Shown: positions 5,377 through 16,289 of the stretch, piece after piece
Layout of the letters: each line of letters opens with the position of its first letter
Position numbering within the stretch: the stretch's first letter is position 1
Virus record (IMG/VR): IMGVR_UViG_3300037782_000051
Span: 1 to 48,345 of that record
Direction: 5' to 3' (one strand)
DNA: 48,345 bases
From: a virus
Taxonomy: Duplodnaviria; Caudoviricetes
Notes under the pieces: generated by a model
What the model was told of the DNA's origin: nothing
Database searches by the model: none
Seen by the model: only the letters and a program-made list of their open reading frames with translations
Made by a program: the position numbers and the translations under genes

Positions 5377-5637
5377 ATGAGCATGAACAAATTCAACGAC
5401 CTGAACGAGTGGGAGGACGACTACTACTCCCGCAAGCACCAAAGCCGGACCGTAACAGCCGGTTACCTAGTCTGGCTAATCGGAGCCGTTGCGATTTTAG
5501 CAGCGCTCAGCCTGCTATTTTCGTGCAGCCGGACAACATACCCAACACAGCAGCCTGATCGCGTTGCGTGCGATACGCTTATTGACAGGGCTACAGGCGA
5601 GCGCATACCTGTATATAACTGCGAAACGACATGGTAA
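5377..5637 (+). CDS. Small membrane protein or lipoprotein
   Basis: Hydrophobic stretch ending LLFSC (lipobox-like). Confidence 0.65.
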   Translation: MSMNKFNDLNEWEDDYYSRKHQSRTVTAGYLVWLIGAVAILAALSLLFSCSRTTYPTQQPDRVACDTLIDRATGERIPVYNCETTW

Positions 5638-5711
5638 GAAGCAACCTATCCGCCGCCACAGAAGTACTAATCTGGCTGCTAATCGTAGCCACAATTTACG
5701 CTCTATGGTAG
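5631..5711 (+). CDS. Putative 26-aa membrane peptide (MVRSNLSAATEVLIWLLIVATIYALW)
   Basis: Manual translation; overlaps both neighbours by 7 nt. Confidence 0.4.
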   Translation: MVRSNLSAATEVLIWLLIVATIYALW

Positions 5712-5911
5712 CGCTGCACATCACAGATATACAGACCGAACCAGGCACCGAAATTGTAAAGGGCAGCGAAGCAACTCGCGCCACCTGCTTTTTCGTTGCT
5801 TGGTATTCGGAGAGCAAAAAGACATTATACTTTAACTGCTCGGACCCTAAAAAGCTGCTTCCACCTGATGTGGAGCGCATAGGGTTTAGGAAAACAAAAC
5901 GCAAAAAATGA
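5705..5911 (+). CDS. Hypothetical protein
   Basis: ATG at 5705 within track ORF 5564..5911; ATGA overlap with the next ORF. Confidence 0.55.
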   Translation: MVALHITDIQTEPGTEIVKGSEATRATCFFVAWYSESKKTLYFNCSDPKKLLPPDVERIGFRKTKRKK

Positions 5912-6087
5912 AAGACGAAAAATTTGAAATTCGCCATTTGCGCATGGAGATAAAACGCGAAACAGCCTGCGCTCAGCAAGCGGAGGATTGCGGCAAACAT
6001 GAGCTTGCTAAAGCCTATCGGCAGGGGCTGAAGGGTAAGAAAAAGAGGTTGAAGGAATTGGAGGTTAGACGGGGAGGTTGTGTGTAG
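5908..6087 (+). CDS. 59-aa basic hypothetical protein whose stop lies in the first attC-like half-site
   Basis: Manual translation MKDEKFEIRHLRMEIKRE...KELEVRRGGCV*. Confidence 0.6.
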   Translation: MKDEKFEIRHLRMEIKRETACAQQAEDCGKHELAKAYRQGLKGKKKRLKELEVRRGGCV

Positions 6088-6096
6088 CTGTAGTTA
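6073..6096 (+). repeat. Truncated attC-like site (right arm only)
   Basis: GGAGGTTGTGTGTAGCTGTAGTTA is 23/24 identical to 9469-9492. No left arm is present upstream. Confidence 0.8.
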
Positions 6097-6228
6097 TACC
6101 TAGCGAAACCAATAAATGTTCCGGCTGCTGGAGGATGCGGAAGCAGCTAGAGAAACCAATATCGGGCATCCACATTTATTCATCATCGCCTATTCCTTTT
6201 GGCATGGGGCGCTAAAATCTTATTTAAA

Positions 6229-6438
6229 ATGGAAACGACTTACATCATAATCAACCCAAAAACCAATTCTTACTTTGAGGGTTTTTTTGCTGGAAATACC
6301 AACCAGATTACATGGACAGATGATTATTCTGAAGCTGTACATTATTCCTCTGTAGAAGAAATAGAGAACGCAAACTTCTATGTAAAGGGAGATATTCATA
6401 AAGTTGAACATAAAATTAGCGCCCTAGCTAGGGTATAA
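6229..6438 (+). CDS. Cassette 1 cargo (cassette 6093-6439), hypothetical 69 aa
   Basis: ATG after TTTAAA; the stop TAA lies within the TAAC core. Confidence 0.75.
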   Translation: METTYIIINPKTNSYFEGFFAGNTNQITWTDDYSEAVHYSSVEEIENANFYVKGDIHKVEHKISALARV

Positions 6439-6495
6439 CGTACAAGTACTGGCGCTGTGCCGACTGTAAGGAGGTATAGGCGCTAGTACGTTGGT
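6437..6495 (+). repeat. attC-like hairpin 1 (AAC...GGT)
   Basis: GTACTGGCGC/GCGCTAGTAC stem with apical CCGACTGTAAGGAGG. Confidence 0.8.
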
Positions 6496-6625
6496 GTACG
6501 ACGGCTACCAATAGATAGTCGGCTGAGCGACAGTAGGAGCCAGCTAAAGAAACTCTACTCAGGCATCATCTTGTATCAATAGAATTTATTTCAAAGGGCA
6601 GTGCGCCCTTAAAACTATAATTACA

Positions 6626-6874
6626 ATGAATCCTTTTCAACCCTTTAATTACCCTAATCAAAACGACCAATTAAGAAAGAATCAACATCAACAACCCAGA
6701 ACTAAATTTAAGGACATTCAGGTAGGGGACGTCTTTAAACTAGAATGGTCTGGAGGATATACTTTATTTGAAAAAAAATCTAAATCCACGGCAATTGTAT
6801 TAGAATCAGAAATCAAATCTCCTGTTTTTGAGGTTGGAGATATTGAAAATTTCAATCCTAATTCACTTATTTAG
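6626..6874 (+). CDS. Cassette 2 cargo (cassette 6493-6893), hypothetical 82 aa
   Basis: ATG 133 nt after the GGT core; the TAG abuts the inner repeat GGCGCAC. Confidence 0.75.
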   Translation: MNPFQPFNYPNQNDQLRKNQHQQPRTKFKDIQVGDVFKLEWSGGYTLFEKKSKSTAIVLESEIKSPVFEVGDIENFNPNSLI

Positions 6875-6890
6875 GCGCACGCTGTCGTAC

Positions 6891-6954
6891 ACCGTACAGG
6901 GCTACACGCCGTGCTGCTGGGGACTCGGTTGGGGCATGGTGTGTAGCTGTAGTT
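6891..6954 (+). repeat. attC-like hairpin 2 (ACC...GTT)
   Basis: GCTACACGCCGTGC/GCATGGTGTGTAGC stem. Confidence 0.85.
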
Positions 6955-7083
6955 ATGCACCGGCTTAATTCTAATCATACGGCCCTGCGACAATAGGAGC
7001 TGGGCTTAAGAAATTATAATCGGGCAATATTGCCTTTCATTTCAAGGCTCATTCTTCGGGTGCGCCGCTTAAATCAAATTAAA

Positions 7084-7371
7084 ATGACAACATTAGAGCA
7101 AGTTAAAACAGTGCCTATCAATATTTTGCTTGAAAAAGTATGGCCCTGTGGTTTATGCTTAATGCGAGATTGTATGTGGATTGCTTTCTGGGAAAATGAA
7201 GATGAAGAAACGGCCTATACTCAAGATTCAGATTCTTTTGAAGATTTTATTTACAGGGTGATTGCAGATCAAATTGAAAACGGAGATGTTGACCATGAAG
7301 GTTTTAATCACATATCAATTGACTTTGCTATAGCATCAGTTGAGTACAATGAAGCGGCGGCTGGTGCATAA
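7084..7371 (+). CDS. Cassette 3 cargo (cassette 6952-7372), acidic hypothetical 95 aa
   Basis: ATG at 7084 after an A-rich stretch; the stop lies in the TAAC core. Confidence 0.75.
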   Translation: MTTLEQVKTVPINILLEKVWPCGLCLMRDCMWIAFWENEDEETAYTQDSDSFEDFIYRVIADQIENGDVDHEGFNHISIDFAIASVEYNEAAAGA

Positions 7372-7435
7372 CGTGCAGAGCTACCCGCCGTACAGCTTAG
7401 GCCGAGCGTTGGCGTATGGCGGGTAGCGTGTAGTT
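7370..7435 (+). repeat. attC-like hairpin 3 (AAC...GTT)
   Basis: GCTACCCGCCGTAC/GTATGGCGGGTAGC stem. Confidence 0.85.
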
Positions 7436-7567
7436 ATACCTAGCGAAACCAATAAATGTTCCGGCTGCTGGAGGATGCGGAAGCAGCTAGAGAAACCAAT
7501 ACCGGGCATCCATATTTATTCATCATTGCTTAATCCTTTTGGCAGGTGCGGCATAAATTAATCAGAA

Positions 7568-7876
7568 ATGAAATACCCTGAATCAATAATCAAAAAGCTA
7601 GTAATTGCATTTATTGTCATTCTTATATTCAATGCAATTATTTTTTACAGAATGGGGTATCACCAATCAAAGGTTGACATCGCCCACGAATACCCAATCT
7701 TCAATTTGAAAAATGAAGTCTTCAACGATGTTGAGTTTGAAGATGGAATGATATACTTTATGGGCGGTGTCAGCCATAATCACACAGTATACACCTATGA
7801 ATCTGATACATTAATTTTCTTATTCACATATCACCCAATGTCTGGTGTTTTTCTTGAAAAAGAATTGCCGCACTAG
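7568..7876 (+). CDS. Cassette 4 cargo (cassette 7433-7888), N-terminal membrane-anchored protein
   Basis: KKLVIAFIVILIFNAIIFY hydrophobic segment; leader nearly identical to cassette 1. Confidence 0.75.
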   Translation: MKYPESIIKKLVIAFIVILIFNAIIFYRMGYHQSKVDIAHEYPIFNLKNEVFNDVEFEDGMIYFMGGVSHNHTVYTYESDTLIFLFTYHPMSGVFLEKELPH

Positions 7877-7885
7877 CTAGGGTAT

Positions 7886-7942
7886 AACGGACGAGTACTG
7901 GCGCAGGCCTGAGGTACGAAGGCTTGGCGCTAGTATGTTGGT
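7886..7942 (+). repeat. attC-like hairpin 4 (AAC...GGT)
   Basis: GTACTGGCGC/GCGCTAGTAT stem with apical CCTGAGGTACGAAGG; same family as hairpin 1. Confidence 0.82.
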
Positions 7943-8072
7943 GTGTGCAGTTAAACCCTTAATCATAGGGTGAGCGACAGTAGGAGCGAACAAGAACAAA
8001 CCCACAACGGGTATCACAATAATTCTTTCACAGTCTAATCCTCCGGGAGCGGGCGCTTAAAACTTAATTACG

Positions 8073-8342
8073 ATGAAACAAGAATTGAATTTTATGGATG
8101 TTGATCTCGGTCACTTTGATACCGAATCGAAAACTTTTCACCCTAATATAGATAATGTAAAATCAATTGAAGTGATGGGGGAAAACAATTGCAACAATCC
8201 AGAAATTATGGGGTCTATTGAAATTGTATGTTACGATGAAAAATGGGATTGGCCAATTTTCATGTGGGTTAGAGAAGATAAGATAACACTATCAACAAGT
8301 GTATCGTATAGCAACCGCCGAAAAGTAATTTATCTTTCTTAG
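8073..8342 (+). CDS. Cassette 5 cargo (cassette 7940-8360), hypothetical 89 aa
   Basis: ATG 133 nt after the GGT core. Confidence 0.75.
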   Translation: MKQELNFMDVDLGHFDTESKTFHPNIDNVKSIEVMGENNCNNPEIMGSIEIVCYDEKWDWPIFMWVREDKITLSTSVSYSNRRKVIYLS

Positions 8343-8357
8343 CGACCGATTGCACAC

Positions 8358-8417
8358 ACCGGACGGGGCTACCCGGCGTATGGAGCGCAGCGTAATATGA
8401 TCGGGTAGCATAGTGTT
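8358..8417 (+). repeat. attC-like hairpin 5 (ACC...GTT)
   Basis: GCTACCCGG/TCGGGTAGC stem. Confidence 0.78.
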
Positions 8418-8538
8418 GGGTGCAGGCGTACAAATAATAGTGCGGCGAGTGACGATAGGAACGAGTGACAAGAAACCCTAAACTGGTATTTATTAATTCC
8501 TTTCTTTACTCTTAATCGGGGTAGAGCAGGGAGCGAAG

Positions 8539-8626
8539 AACGGTTGGGTGTATGGTGTGTAGCTGACACCACTAACTTTCGGCTAAAGAACTAATGTTTA
8601 ATCTGCTATACACTATATATTGTGTT
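8539..8626 (+). repeat. Nested longer attC-like hairpin of a different family inside cassette 6
   Basis: AAC...GTGTATGGTGTGTAGC / GCTATACACTATATAT...GTT; all non-Watson-Crick pairs in this stem are G-T. Confidence 0.72.
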
Positions 8627-8648
8627 AGCCACCGTAAATACTAAGATT

Positions 8649-8879
8649 ATGATTTTAGAAACAGGATTCAAACTACCACGAGATAAAGGCGTGATTCGAT
8701 TTGGTGATGTACTTAAAAGTAGTATGACACATGATGTAGTAGTAATGTTCCATCAAGGACAGAAGAAACCTATCGTAAAAGTGATAGATGAAGATATTTG
8801 GTTTGAACTTGAAGAGTTTCTTGACTCATGTGGTTCACGTCTTGAAATTAGCCACAACATTAATTATTATTGTGGCTAA
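8649..8879 (+). CDS. Nested cassette cargo (GTTAGCCAC 8624 ... GTGGCTAAT 8880) within cassette 6 (8415-8950); weakly YopX-like
   Basis: ATG at 8649. IRFGDVL...LEISHNI loosely recalls the YopX C-terminal pattern. Confidence 0.65.
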   Translation: MILETGFKLPRDKGVIRFGDVLKSSMTHDVVVMFHQGQKKPIVKVIDEDIWFELEEFLDSCGSRLEISHNINYYCG

Positions 8880-8921
8880 TACTTATCCATGTTCAACATT
8901 TCATTGAATATAGATATAGTT
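8878..8921 (+). repeat. Degenerate nested attC-like hairpin (AAT...GTT)
   Basis: TATCCATGTTCAA/TTGAATATAGATA imperfect stem. Confidence 0.55.
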
Positions 8922-8947
8922 CTTCCCTCCCTGCGGAGCTTGCACCC

Positions 8948-9003
8948 AACGTACAGGGCTACACGCAGGCGCGAGGCACGAGTGCTTGTGTGTAGCTGTA
9001 GTT
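8948..9003 (+). repeat. attC-like hairpin 6 (AAC...GTT)
   Basis: TACAGG-GCTACACGCAGGC/GCTTGTGTGTAGC-TGTA with apical GCGAGGCACGAGT. Confidence 0.85.
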
Positions 9004-9133
9004 ATGCACCGTTTTAACCAGCAGTAGACGAGCCGTAGTGTGCGAAGGCGGGTGACTAATTAATCGGGTAACAAACAATTATTATTTATTCATTTTTATC
9101 TGGCGGCTTAATCGTCAGCAAAACACAACAATC

Positions 9134-9409
9134 ATGCAAACATCAAAAAGAACTGAAATTCATGTAAACCAGCGAATGATTGAAATTCTATCTAAAGGCG
9201 ATTATATCCCATCGCTAGAGGAAGAATTTCAGATCAATTATACCACACGCGGGGTACTTCGCAATGATACCTTAAAGGTTGTAAAAATTGAAGATGAAAC
9301 ACACACAAGTGAACCAACTCAATTTCTACCTGAGATAGAAACCGTTGTAACAAAAATTCACTGTGAAGTTGTAAAGAACCATCATAAACAAAGATTTTCA
9401 TCATATTGA
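9134..9409 (+). CDS. Cassette 7 cargo (cassette 9001-9431), hypothetical 91 aa
   Basis: ATG 133 nt after the GTT core; bracketed by TGGCGGCT/AGCCGCCA. Confidence 0.75.
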   Translation: MQTSKRTEIHVNQRMIEILSKGDYIPSLEEEFQINYTTRGVLRNDTLKVVKIEDETHTSEPTQFLPEIETVVTKIHCEVVKNHHKQRFSSY

Positions 9410-9428
9410 TAGCCGCCAAATGGTGCAT

Positions 9429-9491
9429 AACGTACAGGGCTACACGCAGCCTGTTCAGCCCTCGCGTTGGAGGTTGCGTGTAGCTGTAGTT
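9429..9491 (+). repeat. attC-like hairpin 7 (AAC...GTT)
   Basis: GCTACACGCAGCCT/AGGTTGCGTGTAGC stem. Confidence 0.85.
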
Positions 9492-9616
9492 AGGTACTGC
9501 GAAACAACTAAATGGTCAAGGCGGCGATAGCAAGCCGGGTGACTATAACAACAGGCATCAAACCAGTATTCATCATTCATTTTCTTCGGGCGACTGCCAG
9601 CGTAAATAATAATCGA

Positions 9617-10252
9617 ATGCAAAACAAATTCTTAAATATTGATTGTATGGACGAGCGGGAAGGGCTGCCGTCTTATCCTGATAATTTCTTTGATCTTGCT
9701 ATTGTAGATCCACCTTATGGGTTAGATATAGGTAATTCTCCTAGAATTGTAACAGATAAGGGTATCAAGGGCAAGTCTTGGGATTCAATGATACCTGATA
9801 GAGAATACTTTGAACAGTTAAATCGGGTATCTAAAAATCAAATTATTTGGGGCTGGAATTATTTTGTCCCATTTTTATCTTCTTGTCAATGCTATATCGT
9901 TTGGTACAAGCATCAACCTGTCAAATCTTTTGCAGATTGTGAAAGTGCTTATACATCGTTCAAAAGACCCGCTGTTGTTTTTGACTTTAGATACTATGGG
10001 AATATTGAAGGCGGGACAAAAGCTAGTTTGAAAATTCATCCTACTCAAAAACCAATAAAGCTGTATCAAAGGACTTTAACGGAATTTGCCAAACCGGGCG
10101 ACCTTATTCTTGATACTCATGTTGGTTCTGCATCATCATTAATCGCTTTTGAAAGTATGGGATTCAATTACCATGCTTTTGAAATTGATGAAGATTATTA
10201 TAAGGCAGCCCTGGAGCGCATGCGGGCGGGCATTCAAACAGCAATTTTTTAG
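9617..10252 (+). CDS. Cassette 8 cargo (cassette 9489-10273): N6-adenine/N4-cytosine DNA methyltransferase, beta-class motif order
   Basis: Catalytic DPPY, then HPTQKP, then SAM-binding ILDTHVGSAS and FEIDEDYY. Confidence 0.9.
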   Translation: MQNKFLNIDCMDEREGLPSYPDNFFDLAIVDPPYGLDIGNSPRIVTDKGIKGKSWDSMIPDREYFEQLNRVSKNQIIWGWNYFVPFLSSCQCYIVWYKHQPVKSFADCESAYTSFKRPAVVFDFRYYGNIEGGTKASLKIHPTQKPIKLYQRTLTEFAKPGDLILDTHVGSASSLIAFESMGFNYHAFEIDEDYYKAALERMRAGIQTAIF

Positions 10253-10270
10253 CTGGCAGTAGTAGTACCT

Positions 10271-10335
10271 AACGGACAAAGCTACACGCTGCCACGCCCA
10301 GCCCTCGGTTCGCCGGTAGCGTGTAGCGTGATGGT
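10271..10335 (+). repeat. attC-like hairpin 8 (AAC...GGT)
   Basis: GCTACACGCTGCC/GGTAGCGTGTAGC stem. Confidence 0.85.
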
Positions 10336-10482
10336 GTGTGATGTGATATTCAAATAACTGAGCTGCGACGATAGGAGCGCGGCTGTATTAATACCCCCGA
10401 GCCTGTGGAGGCCGGGGGAGAATGAACTAAATTTTTTCATGGCCTAACCCTACTCGGGCAGGCAGGCGTAAAATAATTTTAA

Positions 10483-10671
10483 ATGAAAGATCAAAAGAAA
10501 AGTGTTGAAAATAAACCTAAAAGAAAACCTTGGAATTACGGGAAAAGAAAACCCATTGTAGATGAAATGGGGAATAAATGGTGTAATTGCATAGAACCAA
10601 AACTAACTTCTAATTCAGGTGTAGGTGGTCAAGCATATTGTTTAAAATGTCATTCAAATTGGTATCATTAG
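10483..10671 (+). CDS. Cassette 9 cargo (cassette 10333-10690), small basic Zn-ribbon-like protein
   Basis: CNC...CLKCH cysteine pairs. Confidence 0.65.
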   Translation: MKDQKKSVENKPKRKPWNYGKRKPIVDEMGNKWCNCIEPKLTSNSGVGGQAYCLKCHSNWYH

Positions 10672-10687
10672 CCTGCCCATATCACAC

Positions 10688-10743
10688 ACCGGACGGGGCT
10701 ACACGCAGGGCTGAGGTACGAAGCCTTGAGTGTAGCTGTAGTT
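10688..10743 (+). repeat. attC-like hairpin 9 (ACC...GTT)
   Basis: GCTACACGCAGGGC/GCCTTGAGTGTAGC stem with apical CTGAGGTACGAAG. Confidence 0.85.
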
Positions 10744-10891
10744 ACATGGCGTTTTAACCTATAATAGTCAAGCAGCGACAGTAGGAGCGCGGGTGACTTT
10801 TCTACTCAGCTACAAACCCTTTCCAATCCTGTCTATTCCGTGTGCGGCCCTAAACTAAATATACTTTGTGTATAAAATAATTGATATAAAA

Positions 10892-10924
10892 CTTGCGCGT
10901 GTGGTATACTTATTGTATATTGCA
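10892..10924 (+). promoter_or_regulatory. Promoter inside cassette 10 (CTTG-N20-TATATTGCA)
   Basis: Same spacing as 5311 and 32051; followed by an A-rich leader. Confidence 0.65.
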
Positions 10925-10953
10925 GCATCATTAACAACAAAACAATATAAATC

Positions 10954-11184
10954 ATGAAAAAGTACCTAGTAAATACCTTATTGAATATCATTCACGAGGT
11001 ATCTGAAATTGGAGGTGAAGTTGATCGCACAGATTTCATTCGTGCTGATGGAAGCAAAGGATGCGTTTTTGGTAAAGAATGGAAAACCATGCACGCAGAT
11101 AATGAGGAAGATATAAAAAATCACCTCCGAAAGCACAGAGAGTATTATTGCAGGATTAACGGATATAGCACTTTAGAACTTTAA
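10954..11184 (+). CDS. Cassette 10 (10741-11414) cargo gene 1, hypothetical 76 aa
   Basis: ATG after the promoter and A-rich leader. Confidence 0.75.
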   Translation: MKKYLVNTLLNIIHEVSEIGGEVDRTDFIRADGSKGCVFGKEWKTMHADNEEDIKNHLRKHREYYCRINGYSTLEL

Positions 11185-11227
11185 CCCAAGCCCCCGCGAT
11201 AACATCAACGGGGCTAAATCTTTTATT

Positions 11228-11413
11228 GTGGATAAAATCATTTCTATCTACCTCGAAAACCAAACCGAGAAAGCAAATCGGCTTGGTAAACACCGTCAAA
11301 CATTAGTGGCTTGGAAACGCAACCCTTCTCAGGCTAGCTTGCAATTGATCGAAGAAGACCTTAAAGCGCTTCTTCTTCTAATACAAGAATACAAGACCGC
11401 AAATGCCATGTAA
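11228..11413 (+). CDS. Cassette 10 cargo gene 2, HTH-like 61 aa
   Basis: QTEKANRLGKHRQTLVAWKRNP resembles an HTH; GTG start; the stop lies in the TAAC core. Confidence 0.6.
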   Translation: MDKIISIYLENQTEKANRLGKHRQTLVAWKRNPSQASLQLIEEDLKALLLLIQEYKTANAM

Positions 11414-11426
11414 CTACATAACACCC

Positions 11427-11468
11427 GCAACCCCGTATGTAAACGCTTGTAAACGACTACGGGGTTGC
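11427..11468. repeat. Perfect 11-bp inverted repeat closing the array
   Basis: GCAACCCCGTA...TACGGGGTTGC, 12 nt after the last AAC core. Confidence 0.7.
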
Positions 11469-11481
11469 TTAACTTGTAAGC

Positions 11482-12114
11482 ATGAAAAGAAAGCTAATCC
11501 TGCTCGACCCAGGCCACGGCGGCATCCATCCAGACACCTGCGAGTACACCACCGCACCAGATAAGATGGCGTACCACGAAGGTTATTACATGCACCATGA
11601 CGGATGGTTTTATGAGGGCGCATGGAACAGGTTTTTTGCCCTTGAGCTAGGAGCTGCGCTGGCTGCTTCTGGCATCCCCTTCTTGTACACCGTCCCTTTC
11701 ACCCGCTGGCATGAAGATGTAAGCCTTGGCGAGCGCATAAGTTATGCTAATTGGTTTCATCAACTGCATGACGTGCTATATATCAGCATCCATGCCAACG
11801 CGCATGACACCACCGTCCGGGGCTGGCAGGTGCATACCTCACCTGGTGAAACGCGCAGCGATGCGATAGGGCAGCAGTTGTGGGGTGAAGTAGAAAAAGA
11901 GTTCGGCAGTACGATAACGATGCGTTCAGACGTGTCTGACGGTGATGCAGACTTTGAAAACAAGTTCAGGGTGCTCACTCAGACTCGCTGCACTGCCATC
12001 TTAGCAGAAAACTTATTTTTCGATAACACTGAAGATGCGCTGCTGCTGATGGATGCGAATTTCGTGGAGCGTTTGAAGTGGTGTTATTTTCGGGTTTGTA
12101 TGGGGTGGTTTTAA
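11482..12114 (+). CDS. N-acetylmuramoyl-L-alanine amidase (Amidase_3), probable endolysin
   Basis: LDPGHGG, FYEG, ISIHANA and AILAEN zinc-binding/catalytic motifs. Confidence 0.9.
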   Translation: MKRKLILLDPGHGGIHPDTCEYTTAPDKMAYHEGYYMHHDGWFYEGAWNRFFALELGAALAASGIPFLYTVPFTRWHEDVSLGERISYANWFHQLHDVLYISIHANAHDTTVRGWQVHTSPGETRSDAIGQQLWGEVEKEFGSTITMRSDVSDGDADFENKFRVLTQTRCTAILAENLFFDNTEDALLLMDANFVERLKWCYFRVCMGWF

Positions 12115-12152
12115 TTTGTAGTTTTACATCAACAACAACAAAGCAATTGCAA

Positions 12153-12995
12153 ATGAAAACAGTAACATCAATATCAGGCGGAAAAACATCTGCTTATCTT
12201 GCTACTCATTACCCTACTGATTACAACGTTTTCTCTTTGGTTAGAATAGAGGACAAAAGTGCTGCGTTCCCTGATAAGAAAATTAGGCAAATAGTAGAGG
12301 ATAAAATCCAAAAGCAATTTATTGCTACAGCTGAAGATGATACTATCATTTACACAATTCTTGATCTTGAGCAGCATATCGGCAGAAAGATACATTGGGT
12401 ATCAGGCGACACCTTTGACAGCGTTATCGAACAAAAAGGCGGTTATCTTCCTAACAAGATGCAACGTTTTTGCACTTCAGAAATGAAGTTAAAGCCTATT
12501 TTTTATTGGTGGGCAGAAACAATAAGCGAACCAATAAAAATGCAAATTGGCTACCGGGCTAATGAGCAAAGAAGAGCAAACACTATGCTATCTAAGTGCA
12601 ATGAAGACGGATTGCTCGAATATAAAGCAACATTTGAAAAGCACTCAAATGGGAACAATAAATGGGAGCAAATACCATGGCAAAAACCATCATTCCCGCT
12701 TATTGATAACGCTGTTTTTCGTGACCAGATAGAAAACTATTGGACTGGTCAAACCGTCCGTTTTGCTGATTACAATAACTGTGTCGGCTGCTTTCATCGA
12801 AACCCCTTATTTCTTCGTAAGATGTGGGATAAACATCCAGCTAAGATGGATTGGTTTGAATCAAAAGAAACAGGGCCGAAAAACCCAAATTGGAGATCTG
12901 ATATATCTTATTCACAAATTAAGCAGCACCGCCCTCAATTTGAATTAGATTTTTCAGATTTTTCAGATTGCGATTCTGGATACTGCGGAATGTAA
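12153..12995 (+). CDS. PAPS-reductase-like (PP-loop) protein with Cys clusters
   Basis: SISGGKTS PP-loop, RFCTSEMK, IGYRANE, NCVGCF and terminal CDSGYCG. Confidence 0.8.
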   Translation: MKTVTSISGGKTSAYLATHYPTDYNVFSLVRIEDKSAAFPDKKIRQIVEDKIQKQFIATAEDDTIIYTILDLEQHIGRKIHWVSGDTFDSVIEQKGGYLPNKMQRFCTSEMKLKPIFYWWAETISEPIKMQIGYRANEQRRANTMLSKCNEDGLLEYKATFEKHSNGNNKWEQIPWQKPSFPLIDNAVFRDQIENYWTGQTVRFADYNNCVGCFHRNPLFLRKMWDKHPAKMDWFESKETGPKNPNWRSDISYSQIKQHRPQFELDFSDFSDCDSGYCGM

Positions 12996-14708: not shown

Positions 14709-16289
14709 TTAATTTTTCACTGCCTTGCGCTCGATAGTATTCTGCGCGAAAGTGACAGTATTGATTTGTGAAAATGTCCTCTTTATGTTCGACACTGTCT
14801 TGCGCCGTGGTGCGTCTAGCTGCGAACGCTGCCCGGCAACTTCAGTGATTATTGTCTCAATCTGTACATCGTACCCTGCACGCTTCATCAGCATCTCATA
14901 AAAGTGCCGCACCCAAAACGTCATATCGAGCTTGTCGTCTGTAGCATTTAGCACAAAAGCCCGGTTGGTGAAGAACTCAGCAGTAGCAAGTGTAATCGCC
15001 TCAACAGCATCTTCAGCATACAGCTTGCTATCATAGCGCACTGTTAGCCTAACTTCATCGGTATAAAACTTTCCTGAGCCAAACGGCTTCCACATCACAG
15101 GATAGTTGTCTGATAACTTGACAATGATAGTGCGCTTGTCCTTTTCCGGCTGATCTGGTTCGTCCGGTTCATCTGGTTCGTCATCATTCGGCGTATCGGG
15201 GTTGCCGTTATGTTCATCGCTGTAGCTTTCCGGGTTGACGTCCTTAAGCGCTGTCAGGATATTAACGCCATATCCATACTTTTCATCCCATCCTTGCGGG
15301 CCTAAGCCCACCGCATTAGCACGCAGGCAGTTGCTCACCTGCTTAGCTGTAGCGTTCGATGTAGCCCCTAGAATAGCAGCTATTGCTGCCTGTGTAGGCG
15401 TTGCCATCGAAGTGCCTGACAGTTCAGCGTAACCACCGTTAAGCCATGCGCCGTACACCCGGACGCCTGCCCCTGACATATAGAGCTGTGGCCCGTAGTT
15501 GCTAAAGCCTGCAATAGTGCCTGAGTTGTCAATTGCTCCGATAGCGTGCGCACTTGTCCCGTTTGCCGGAGTGCCGATGAAGTTCTGCCCGTTGTTACCA
15601 GCAGCTGCAAGAACAAGCACGCCAGCATCTTCAGCTTTCTCAATAGCGCTGTTGAATTGCTCATTAACGCTTTGGCTGCCTAGCGAAAAATTAAAGATGA
15701 CAAACCAACCATCATCAATCAGCTTTTTTGCTTCTGCTGTGCCTGTCTCGATGCCTGTAACGATTTGGCTTGTATAGCCATAGCCCTCCTTTCGCAAGAC
15801 TTTGTAGAAGATCAGCTTCAGGTTATCGCCTAAGATAGATGCAGGCCCAAGCTTGTAGTTAAACTCATGCTTGCCTGCAATGCAGGTGCCTACGTGTATG
15901 CCATGCCCATGCTTTGCGCTTGCAGGCTCTCCTGTAAATATTTTATCTTTCTCAGGCCACGCGAAATCCTCAAGGCTCTTATGCCCTGCTTCGCCTTCAG
16001 TATCGAAGACGAACACCGCCACCTTGCGCTTGATACGCTCCTTAATCCACGCCTCGTTCTGAGCCACGCGGTAGTAATCGTACGCCCAATTGCCGTTCGC
16101 GTCAGCGGTGGCAAGGCTTGGTATCATCGGTATCTGCTCGATCGGGTCAAGGAAGACCTTTCCCGGCCCTTGATTCTCCTGAATGAAGCGCTCAATACGC
16201 TTGTACTCATTTGAATACTCATCAGGCACAGGCTGTGCGAAGAGCGTAAAAGTAACTGCTGTTAGTAGCAGTATCAGTAGATTCTTCAT
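14709..16289 (-). CDS. Subtilisin-like S8 serine protease with signal peptide
   Basis: VFVFDT, HGHGIHVG, AAAGN and GTSMATP catalytic motifs; N-terminal MKNLLILLLTAVTFTLFA|Q. Confidence 0.9.
   Translation of the reverse strand: MKNLLILLLTAVTFTLFAQPVPDEYSNEYKRIERFIQENQGPGKVFLDPIEQIPMIPSLATADANGNWAYDYYRVAQNEAWIKERIKRKVAVFVFDTEGEAGHKSLEDFAWPEKDKIFTGEPASAKHGHGIHVGTCIAGKHEFNYKLGPASILGDNLKLIFYKVLRKEGYGYTSQIVTGIETGTAEAKKLIDDGWFVIFNFSLGSQSVNEQFNSAIEKAEDAGVLVLAAAGNNGQNFIGTPANGTSAHAIGAIDNSGTIAGFSNYGPQLYMSGAGVRVYGAWLNGGYAELSGTSMATPTQAAIAAILGATSNATAKQVSNCLRANAVGLGPQGWDEKYGYGVNILTALKDVNPESYSDEHNGNPDTPNDDEPDEPDEPDQPEKDKRTIIVKLSDNYPVMWKPFGSGKFYTDEVRLTVRYDSKLYAEDAVEAITLATAEFFTNRAFVLNATDDKLDMTFWVRHFYEMLMKRAGYDVQIETIITEVAGQRSQLDAPRRKTVSNIKRTFSQINTVTFAQNTIERKAVKN

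Follow-up and report, generated by a model that had tools for sequence, protein, structure and literature searches.

The window analysed here is the whole of the virus record IMGVR_UViG_3300037782_000051 (Duplodnaviria; Caudoviricetes), a genome of 48,345 bases whose completeness is rated 100%, and we describe an array of small, hairpin-bounded gene units that lies in it between 6073 and 11414. Searches with PHROGs and Pfam assign genes for terminase, portal, capsid, tape measure, DnaB and amidase to this genome. The portal protein matches 75 annotated phage records, 74 of which are named for Bacteroidota hosts, and a portal-like piece with 52% identity is present in one of the 301 genomes of the family of genome G001; the host of the phage is therefore probably a member of Bacteroidota.

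The array consists of ten units rather than nine, each with a small open reading frame (ORF) on the plus strand. It opens with half a hairpin (6073–6093) that holds the right arm only, agrees in 20 of 21 letters with its counterpart in the hairpin at 9469–9489, and is deleted or different in the sister loci L133 and L270; we regard it as the truncated front of unit 1, placed where the array is oldest. Each of the nine complete hairpins lies between a left core triplet, AAC or ACC, and a right core triplet, GTT or GGT. From left to right, these pairs begin at 6437 (AAC) and 6493 (GGT), 6891 (ACC) and 6952 (GTT), 7370 (AAC) and 7433 (GTT), 7886 (AAC) and 7940 (GGT), 8358 (ACC) and 8415 (GTT), 8948 (AAC) and 9001 (GTT), 9429 (AAC) and 9489 (GTT), 10271 (AAC) and 10333 (GGT), and 10688 (ACC) and 10741 (GTT). 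An additional lead GTT stands at 6093, and the tenth unit closes at AAC 11412–11414 without a standard hairpin.

With the borders argued for below, unit 1 (6093–6438, GTT/AAC) carries an ORF of 69 amino acids (aa) at 6229–6438, which stops in the core TAA. Unit 2 (6439–6892, GGT/ACC) is composed of a hairpin (6439–6493), a leader and an 82-aa ORF (6626–6874); unit 3 (6893–7371, GTT/AAC) has its hairpin at 6893–6952 and a 95-aa ORF at 7084–7371; and unit 4 (7372–7887, GTT/AAC), whose end belongs to the family of unit 1, has its hairpin at 7372–7433 and a 102-aa ORF at 7568–7876. Units 1 and 4 share 130 nucleotides (nt) at 92%. Unit 5 (7888–8359, GGT/ACC), with a hairpin at 7888–7940 and an 89-aa ORF at 8073–8342, has relatives in the loci L282/L284 and in contigs of runs X2 and X3. 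Unit 6 (8360–8949, GTT/AAC) is composite: behind its hairpin (8360–8415), a shell encloses an inner cassette at about 8541–8879 on the plus strand, with GTT at 8624, a 76-aa ORF at 8649–8879 and the right junction AA|T, and the same shell recurs in L133 (1598–2523) with a different inner gene. Unit 7 (8950–9430, GTT/AAC) has its hairpin at 8950–9001 and a 91-aa ORF at 9134–9409. Unit 8 (9431–10272, GTT/AAC; hairpin 9431–9489) is the only one whose gene could be annotated, as a DNA methyltransferase (9617–10252; N6_N4_Mtase, E=5e-14; PHROG 67, E=2e-35). Unit 9 (10273–10689, GGT/ACC; hairpin 10273–10333) and unit 10 (10690–11413, GTT/AAC; hairpin 10690–10741) carry ORFs of 62 aa (10483–10671) and 76 aa (10954–11184), respectively. 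The core TAA is the gene's own stop codon in three units (6436–6438, 7369–7371 and 8877–8879). Each unit also has a second GC-rich inverted repeat, which brackets the ORF about 110–130 nt inside the outer GTT (for example ~7545–7555 with 7865–7873, 9101–9108 with 9411–9418, and 9594–9602 with 10254–10262) and may be a trace of cassette making, and the leaders carry a conserved motif (families D12–D14). A scan of 5500–11500 against Rfam gave a single chance match (E=0.55).

The two core classes are distributed as the first-pass annotation had described them, in both coordinates and classes: units 2, 5 and 9 are GGT…ACC and the remaining seven are GTT…AAC. The core listing also bears out its observation that six of the nine hairpin sites are mismatched hybrids, AAC…GGT at 6437, 7886 and 10271 and ACC…GTT at 6891, 8358 and 10688. 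Every unit that starts with GGT is one of the three that finish with ACC, an outcome with a chance probability of 1/120, and the two ends of one unit are complementary at a mean of 10.4 of 12 positions, against 5.6 of 12 for the other ends in the array. A walker program in which any middle base was allowed recovered 10 of 10 units in order. The core letters are identical in contigs of run X1, which is possibly the source of the window and is then not independent, and one contig of run X2, from another study, covers 7886–8418 and reads AAC…GGT, unit 5, ACC…GTT.

This covariation requires only that the cut follow the middle base in A[A/C]C and precede the middle base in G[T/G]T. It suits either core, and thus does not by itself expose the crossover point, contrary to what had been claimed. 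The first-pass annotation had placed recombination 5' of the middle base at coding-strand G|TT or G|GT; the hybrid sites, the travelling of each unit with its own middle base and the integron-like chemistry in that proposal stand, but sister phages put the cut at the other core, A[A/C]|C. We compared 21 junctions, namely nine of the window and 12 from eight sister loci, after excluding two candidates without a readable right core. Hairpin similarity goes with the start of the downstream unit (rho 0.36, Mantel p 0.0012) but not with the end of the upstream one (rho −0.15, Mantel p 0.95); its mean is 0.36 for the 20 pairs with the same downstream side, 0.16 for the 21 with the same upstream side and 0.21 for 151 unrelated pairs, the junctions being related to each other rather than independent.

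The break points of identity tell the same. In L133, the fifth hairpin of the window and the unit 6 shell come immediately after a unit of the unit 1 and 4 family, and identity with the window begins exactly at 8360; in L275 it begins exactly at 10690. Both positions are the C of ACC in the left core, not a base of the core at which the junctions had been expected, and in both sisters an AAC end stands in front. The hairpin and ends of unit 8 are placed behind a different upstream unit in L270, whose methylase unit continues straight into the terminal site. Further joints come from runs that belong to other studies: contigs of run X2 join 6438 to 8360 and have an ACC-type end before 7372, other ends are joined before 8360 in runs X3 and X8, and an ACC-type end is joined before 8950 in run X6; these joints were obtained at 85% likeness, several with sides of fewer than 30 letters, and belong to related phages rather than to this genome. 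T precedes the G of the right core at four of four GGT sites, and 15 of 17 GTT sites have A there; this base therefore appears to travel with the downstream unit.

Sequence comparison alone leaves one base of doubt, a cut before or after the C. The inner cassette of unit 6, for which two inner genes are available (window and L133), has an AA end followed by the T of the shell, and this AA|T junction favours a cut that precedes the third core base. Since identity breaks at the C and the hairpin travels with the gene behind it, the crossover is likely to fall at A[A/C]|C of the coding strand, a cut that reads G|TT or G|GT when the minus strand is considered. Judged from these comparisons, the unit is C-hairpin-G[T/G]T-leader-gene-A[A/C], and the hairpin belongs to the gene behind. 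A circle of unit 2 is accordingly predicted to contain the hairpin 6439–6493, and not 6893–6952.

At the downstream end, a terminal docking (attI-like) site on the plus strand, with a tentative extent of 11412–11460 and the crossover at 11413|11414, precedes the amidase gene. Four different unit ends, in the window, L132, L133 and L270, abut this one site at 11412. An inverted repeat at 11424–11464, after the terminal AAC, is kept in L132, L133 and L270 and may be a terminator or a part of the docking site. A second docking-site variant, in a different place in the genome and not before the amidase gene, lies from about 2237 onward in L282 (contig FYBJ01001853.1), and unit ends in run X2 stand at a variant similar to it.

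The coding strand is the better folder in nine of nine circle forms, in 19 of 21 sister hairpins and at 94 of 97 sites of the recombinase-linked arrays described below. The core spacers are 6–7 nt on the cut side and 3–5 nt on the other side, with bulges on the cut-side arm. In folding models of the array form, the C–G pair at the cut has a probability of at most 0.08 at the six mismatched sites and 0.59–0.91 at the three matched sites, and it rises to 0.93–0.99 in the circle forms. An in silico repair of the middle base brings back only some of this pairing, and therefore the flanks matter too. In attC sites, the recombined strand is the better-folding one (PMC5027507, available part). The predicted folding asymmetry here is what cleavage of the coding strand would lead one to expect, and it would also suit a single-stranded substrate and replicative resolution.

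Units of the GGT class are not confined to the window. L282/L284 hold one whole unit and one ACC remnant, and the class is found also in runs X2, X3 and X6, with several different neighbours on each side; in X3, two tandem units of the GGT family have a matched ACC-hairpin-GGT site between them. GGT units thus move among sister phages, in agreement with the earlier view that the recombinase must accept GGT/ACC. The GGT ends are a substitution variant of the unit 6 family, with which units 5 and 9 align in register. In a circle, the two ends would be the arms of one hairpin, and templated correction could plausibly change both together.

The same annotation had taken GTT as essentially invariant for IntI. 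Conservation in nature holds, all integrons characterised by the time of the report of Frumerie et al. keeping GTT (PMC2811028), but the available text of that report states that IntI1 needs identity only at the first core base and tolerates a paired T2→G2 change; therefore the use of GGT alone is no mark of a different enzyme. The surprising part is the mismatch rather than GGT as such. In attC × attI1 recombination by IntI1, a non-complementary middle position, tested as a T–T mismatch, lowered the frequency from 2.2e-3 to 6e-6, about 370-fold (PMC2811028, available part). Apart from unit 7, no single unit of the window would be able to excise without the participation of a mismatched site or of the docking site, and by analogy the mismatched hybrids may be slow to excise. 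An absolute lock by mismatch was considered and rejected, because GGT units are found with three or more different neighbours on one side.

Neither PHROGs nor Pfam identifies a tyrosine recombinase among the 58 ORFs of the genome, and therefore the enzyme must act in trans. A candidate family was reached through L009, where a hairpin of the window's family lies in an array that stops, with its last unit, just in front of a gene for a 285-aa tyrosine recombinase. An alignment of six L009-type proteins (L139 excluded for a stop within the frame) gave, as query, 80 viral recombinase loci, of which 56 are non-redundant after removal of 13 duplicates and of 11 loci with short flanks, and the best cassette end lies 50–54 nt before the recombinase gene in 37 of the 56. 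These recombinase-linked arrays have the same end build, 10 pairs and a wobble at position 11, and the same hairpin-first polarity. When 54 loci were walked, 47 gave cassettes, with 113 calls; 111 are GTT/AAC and two (L323) were judged mis-walks by eye, the same walker having recovered the three GGT units of the window. The 90 distinct end pairs are invariant at positions 1–3 and show all pair types at positions 5–9, in a set for which the walker selects end complementarity. The GGT class, which recurs within the phage group, was not found outside it, either in the recombinase-linked arrays or at the 31 viral loci retrieved with an ACC-end pattern, none of which has a GGT start upstream; the difference between three of 10 units in the window and none of 111 has a Fisher p of 4e-4, with related units counted separately.

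The profile of the array-linked enzymes (A1) aligns with IntI4 (2a3v) at 8–180 with 7–180 and at 202–274 with 245–317, these enzymes being about 43 residues shorter than IntI4 between the aligned blocks, and TIGR02249 scores 165.8 bits against an array-linked enzyme, below its cut-off of 265. The helical insertion is described as specific to IntI, the closest IntI relatives having none (Smyshlyaev et al., bioRxiv 10.1101/542381, available part). Given the absence of GGT and the differing docking motif, the array-linked enzyme is only a candidate for the window array, whose own enzyme most likely comes from the small Xer-like family encoded next to arrays of this kind, but from a subtype other than those sampled. 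Very short units of 92–113 nt, which hardly leave room for a typical gene, occur in the recombinase-linked arrays of L322, L325, L333, L357, L383 and L394, often adjoining the docking site. In L279, positions 529–1457 of the stored strand hold a classically oriented cassette of two genes, which directly adjoins a phage-type cassette of the same array, and therefore the direction of the gene within a unit is free.

Other searches were less productive. A left-arm pattern, scanned over 30 of 64 parts, gave at least 11 viral and at least 120 genome loci, with a second arm only in L009; a loose hairpin pattern on viral contigs (16 of 64 parts) gave at least 120 loci, none convincing by eye; a metagenome pattern gave real sites at seven of 23 loci; DnaB as query found no sister phage; and an unanchored cassette finder was discarded as too noisy. 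On the host side, the array DNA had six weak matches only against the 301 genomes of the family of G001, the site pattern had no match in 401 genomes in the host search centred on that family, and a loose site pattern did no better overall than its control when applied to 401 genomes of the order. Recombinase homologues with 35–44% identity are present in 47 of 201 genomes of the host search, and 34 homologue loci with 1.5 kb flanks contain no convincing first cassette; the host array and enzyme were thus not found among the genomes searched. Beyond the array, the phage encodes a PAPS-reductase-like protein (12078–12995) and a subtilase-family protease (14709–16289).

Taking these results together, we consider it probable that the units are mobile hairpin-then-gene cassettes, which a tyrosine recombinase of integron-like type, acting in trans, swaps at A[A/C]|C. 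The unit borders, the ownership of the hairpin, the downstream docking site, the two core classes and the movement of GGT units are established at the level of sequence comparison. The recombinase would cut the folded coding strand and need identity only at the C. The free cassette would be a circle in which the unit's own ends, by 10 pairs, a G–T wobble and further pairs, close the hairpin, which would then carry a perfect GTT/AAC or GGT/ACC duplex. The circle would enter at the downstream docking site, and the genes would point towards that site, the mirror image of classical integrons. As the middle base would not be exchanged, a GGT unit among GTT units would create a mismatch beside the cut in both flanking sites, and this mismatch would slow excision without blocking it, judging by the many neighbours of GGT units.

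Several observations weigh against this interpretation. PF00589 has no match in the genome, although the record is rated complete, two partial sisters also contain no recombinase, and no cassette circle has been seen. GGT/ACC is absent from all cassettes of the recombinase-linked arrays, and the window's docking site shares only CTAC with their docking profile, built from 46 docking sequences, in which it ranks 352nd of 1558 AAC positions. The junctions in the Mantel test are related to each other; some pairs with the same downstream side have unrelated hairpins, and a mosaic make-up is plain in the hairpins. Units 1 and 4 have one upstream end in common and both precede the same hairpin family, which taken alone would speak for upstream ownership. 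The contig joints depend on 85% likeness, short sides and related phages. Finally, the L270 unit at 2227–2595 is a chimera, with the start of one end family and the end of another, and therefore homologous recombination, between leaders, also shuffles the arrays.

The most serious alternative, although an unlikely one, is an ordinary group of clustered attC sites that has no integron-integrase (CALIN), served by a classical host IntI and having its genes merely inverted in the cassettes. Both the place of the cut and the homology of a single base match IntI, and in the available sources IntI1 tolerates paired GGT (PMC2811028) and recombined one attC of a Polaribacter phage (PMC9892861). The recombinase of the window array is not among the genome's genes, the docking motif differs from that of the Xer-like arrays, and L279 has a cassette of classical orientation beside a phage-type one. 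On the other hand, the spacer and bulge build is unlike attC with its extrahelical bases near L'' (PMC5027507), the enzymes linked to arrays of the same build have no IntI insertion, and complete integrons are very rare in Bacteroidetes (PMC9024848), as far as the available parts of these two papers state.

Much less probable is that no site-specific enzyme exists, homologous recombination between leaders or hairpins shuffling the units and the repeats acting as RNA structures or terminators. The missing recombinase, the chimeric unit and mosaic hairpins of the sisters and the 130 nt common to units 1 and 4 would suit this view, but it does not explain why the same single base is the break point between unrelated ends without upstream homology, why one fixed terminal site takes different ends, or why, at most of the loci examined, a constant distance separates the same build from the gene of a tyrosine recombinase. 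Classical polarity, with crossover at coding-strand G|TT or G|GT and the hairpin owned by the gene in front, accommodates the GGT/ACC covariation equally well and also the shared end and following hairpin family of units 1 and 4; we nevertheless find it slightly harder still to believe, as the Mantel test supports downstream ownership, sister identity starts at the left-core C, no hairpin follows the last unit and the terminal site is common to four ends, and the coding strand folds better. That GGT is mis-registered, the real core being a GTT 3 nt ahead and the ACC ends 3 nt short, is the least credible idea: such a GTT directly precedes GGT at three of four GGT sites and at 6437 could pair with AAC, but site 10271 has none and shows the standard 7/5 spacing, the GGT register preserves the arm offset of 2–3 nt that every other site has, units 5 and 9 can be aligned with the GTT unit 6 as substitution variants without any shift, circle forms pair ACC with GGT with a probability of 0.93–1.0, and X3 has a matched ACC-hairpin-GGT site.

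Returning to exchange of hairpin-first cassettes at A[A/C]|C, the system resembles classical integrons in its array of single-gene cassettes bounded by hairpins with hybrid cores, in the A/C cut of a three-base core on the better-folding strand with one-base homology, in a single docking site at one array end (here at 11412), and in a core position 2 that can be exchanged if paired, known for integrons from laboratory work (PMC2811028, available part). It differs in that the hairpin precedes the gene, the coding strand folds and the genes point towards the docking site, whereas attC lies behind its gene and its non-coding strand is folded and cut; in other spacer and bulge geometry, with own ends complementary over about 10–12 nt; in GGT/ACC in three of ten units against invariant GTT/AAC; and in the enzymes, those beside look-alike arrays having no IntI insertion and the window array having no intI gene. 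It is therefore integron-like in working, yet it fails integron membership on enzyme, polarity and core invariance. The phage CALINs of Qi et al. (2023, PMC9892861) are likewise integrase-free phage arrays, one of Polaribacter, with DNA methyltransferase genes, but were detected through attC models and gave G|TTRRRY junctions in an IntI1 assay, and the available part of that paper mentions no core variant, reversed hairpin ownership or Xer-like enzyme. The integron-like Xer-related recombinases of Smyshlyaev et al. lack the helical insertion, as do the array-linked enzymes, but are tied in the available text to IS91 and IS3 elements and not to cassette arrays (bioRxiv 10.1101/542381). The Xer-like Bacteroidota phage arrays are alike in end build, polarity and the L009 hairpin family and different in docking motif. 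Our literature search, which covered few subscription journals, found no description of a hairpin-first system or of a natural GGT core.

The two core classes are a genetic marker that, with the sister phages, maps the crossover and a mirror-image polarity. Why GTT is kept by every integron, when IntI1 does not require it, is a question raised by Frumerie et al. (PMC2811028, available part), and this phage group is a natural experiment on that question, as a second core class moves in it and most sites are mismatched beside the cut. Either the recombinase ignores a mismatch that is costly to IntI1, which would suggest a different grip on folded DNA, or the mismatch fixes cassettes. A more speculative thought, which we hold as doubtful, is that the core triplet is a compatibility code of a non-IntI cassette system, whereby a GGT unit, fully paired as it enters in circle form, then mismatches both flanks and locks itself and its neighbours while runs of one class stay excisable. 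If true, this ratchet would account for the mismatch at two-thirds of the array's sites and for the lack of any GTT drift in classical integrons, whose working depends on excision.

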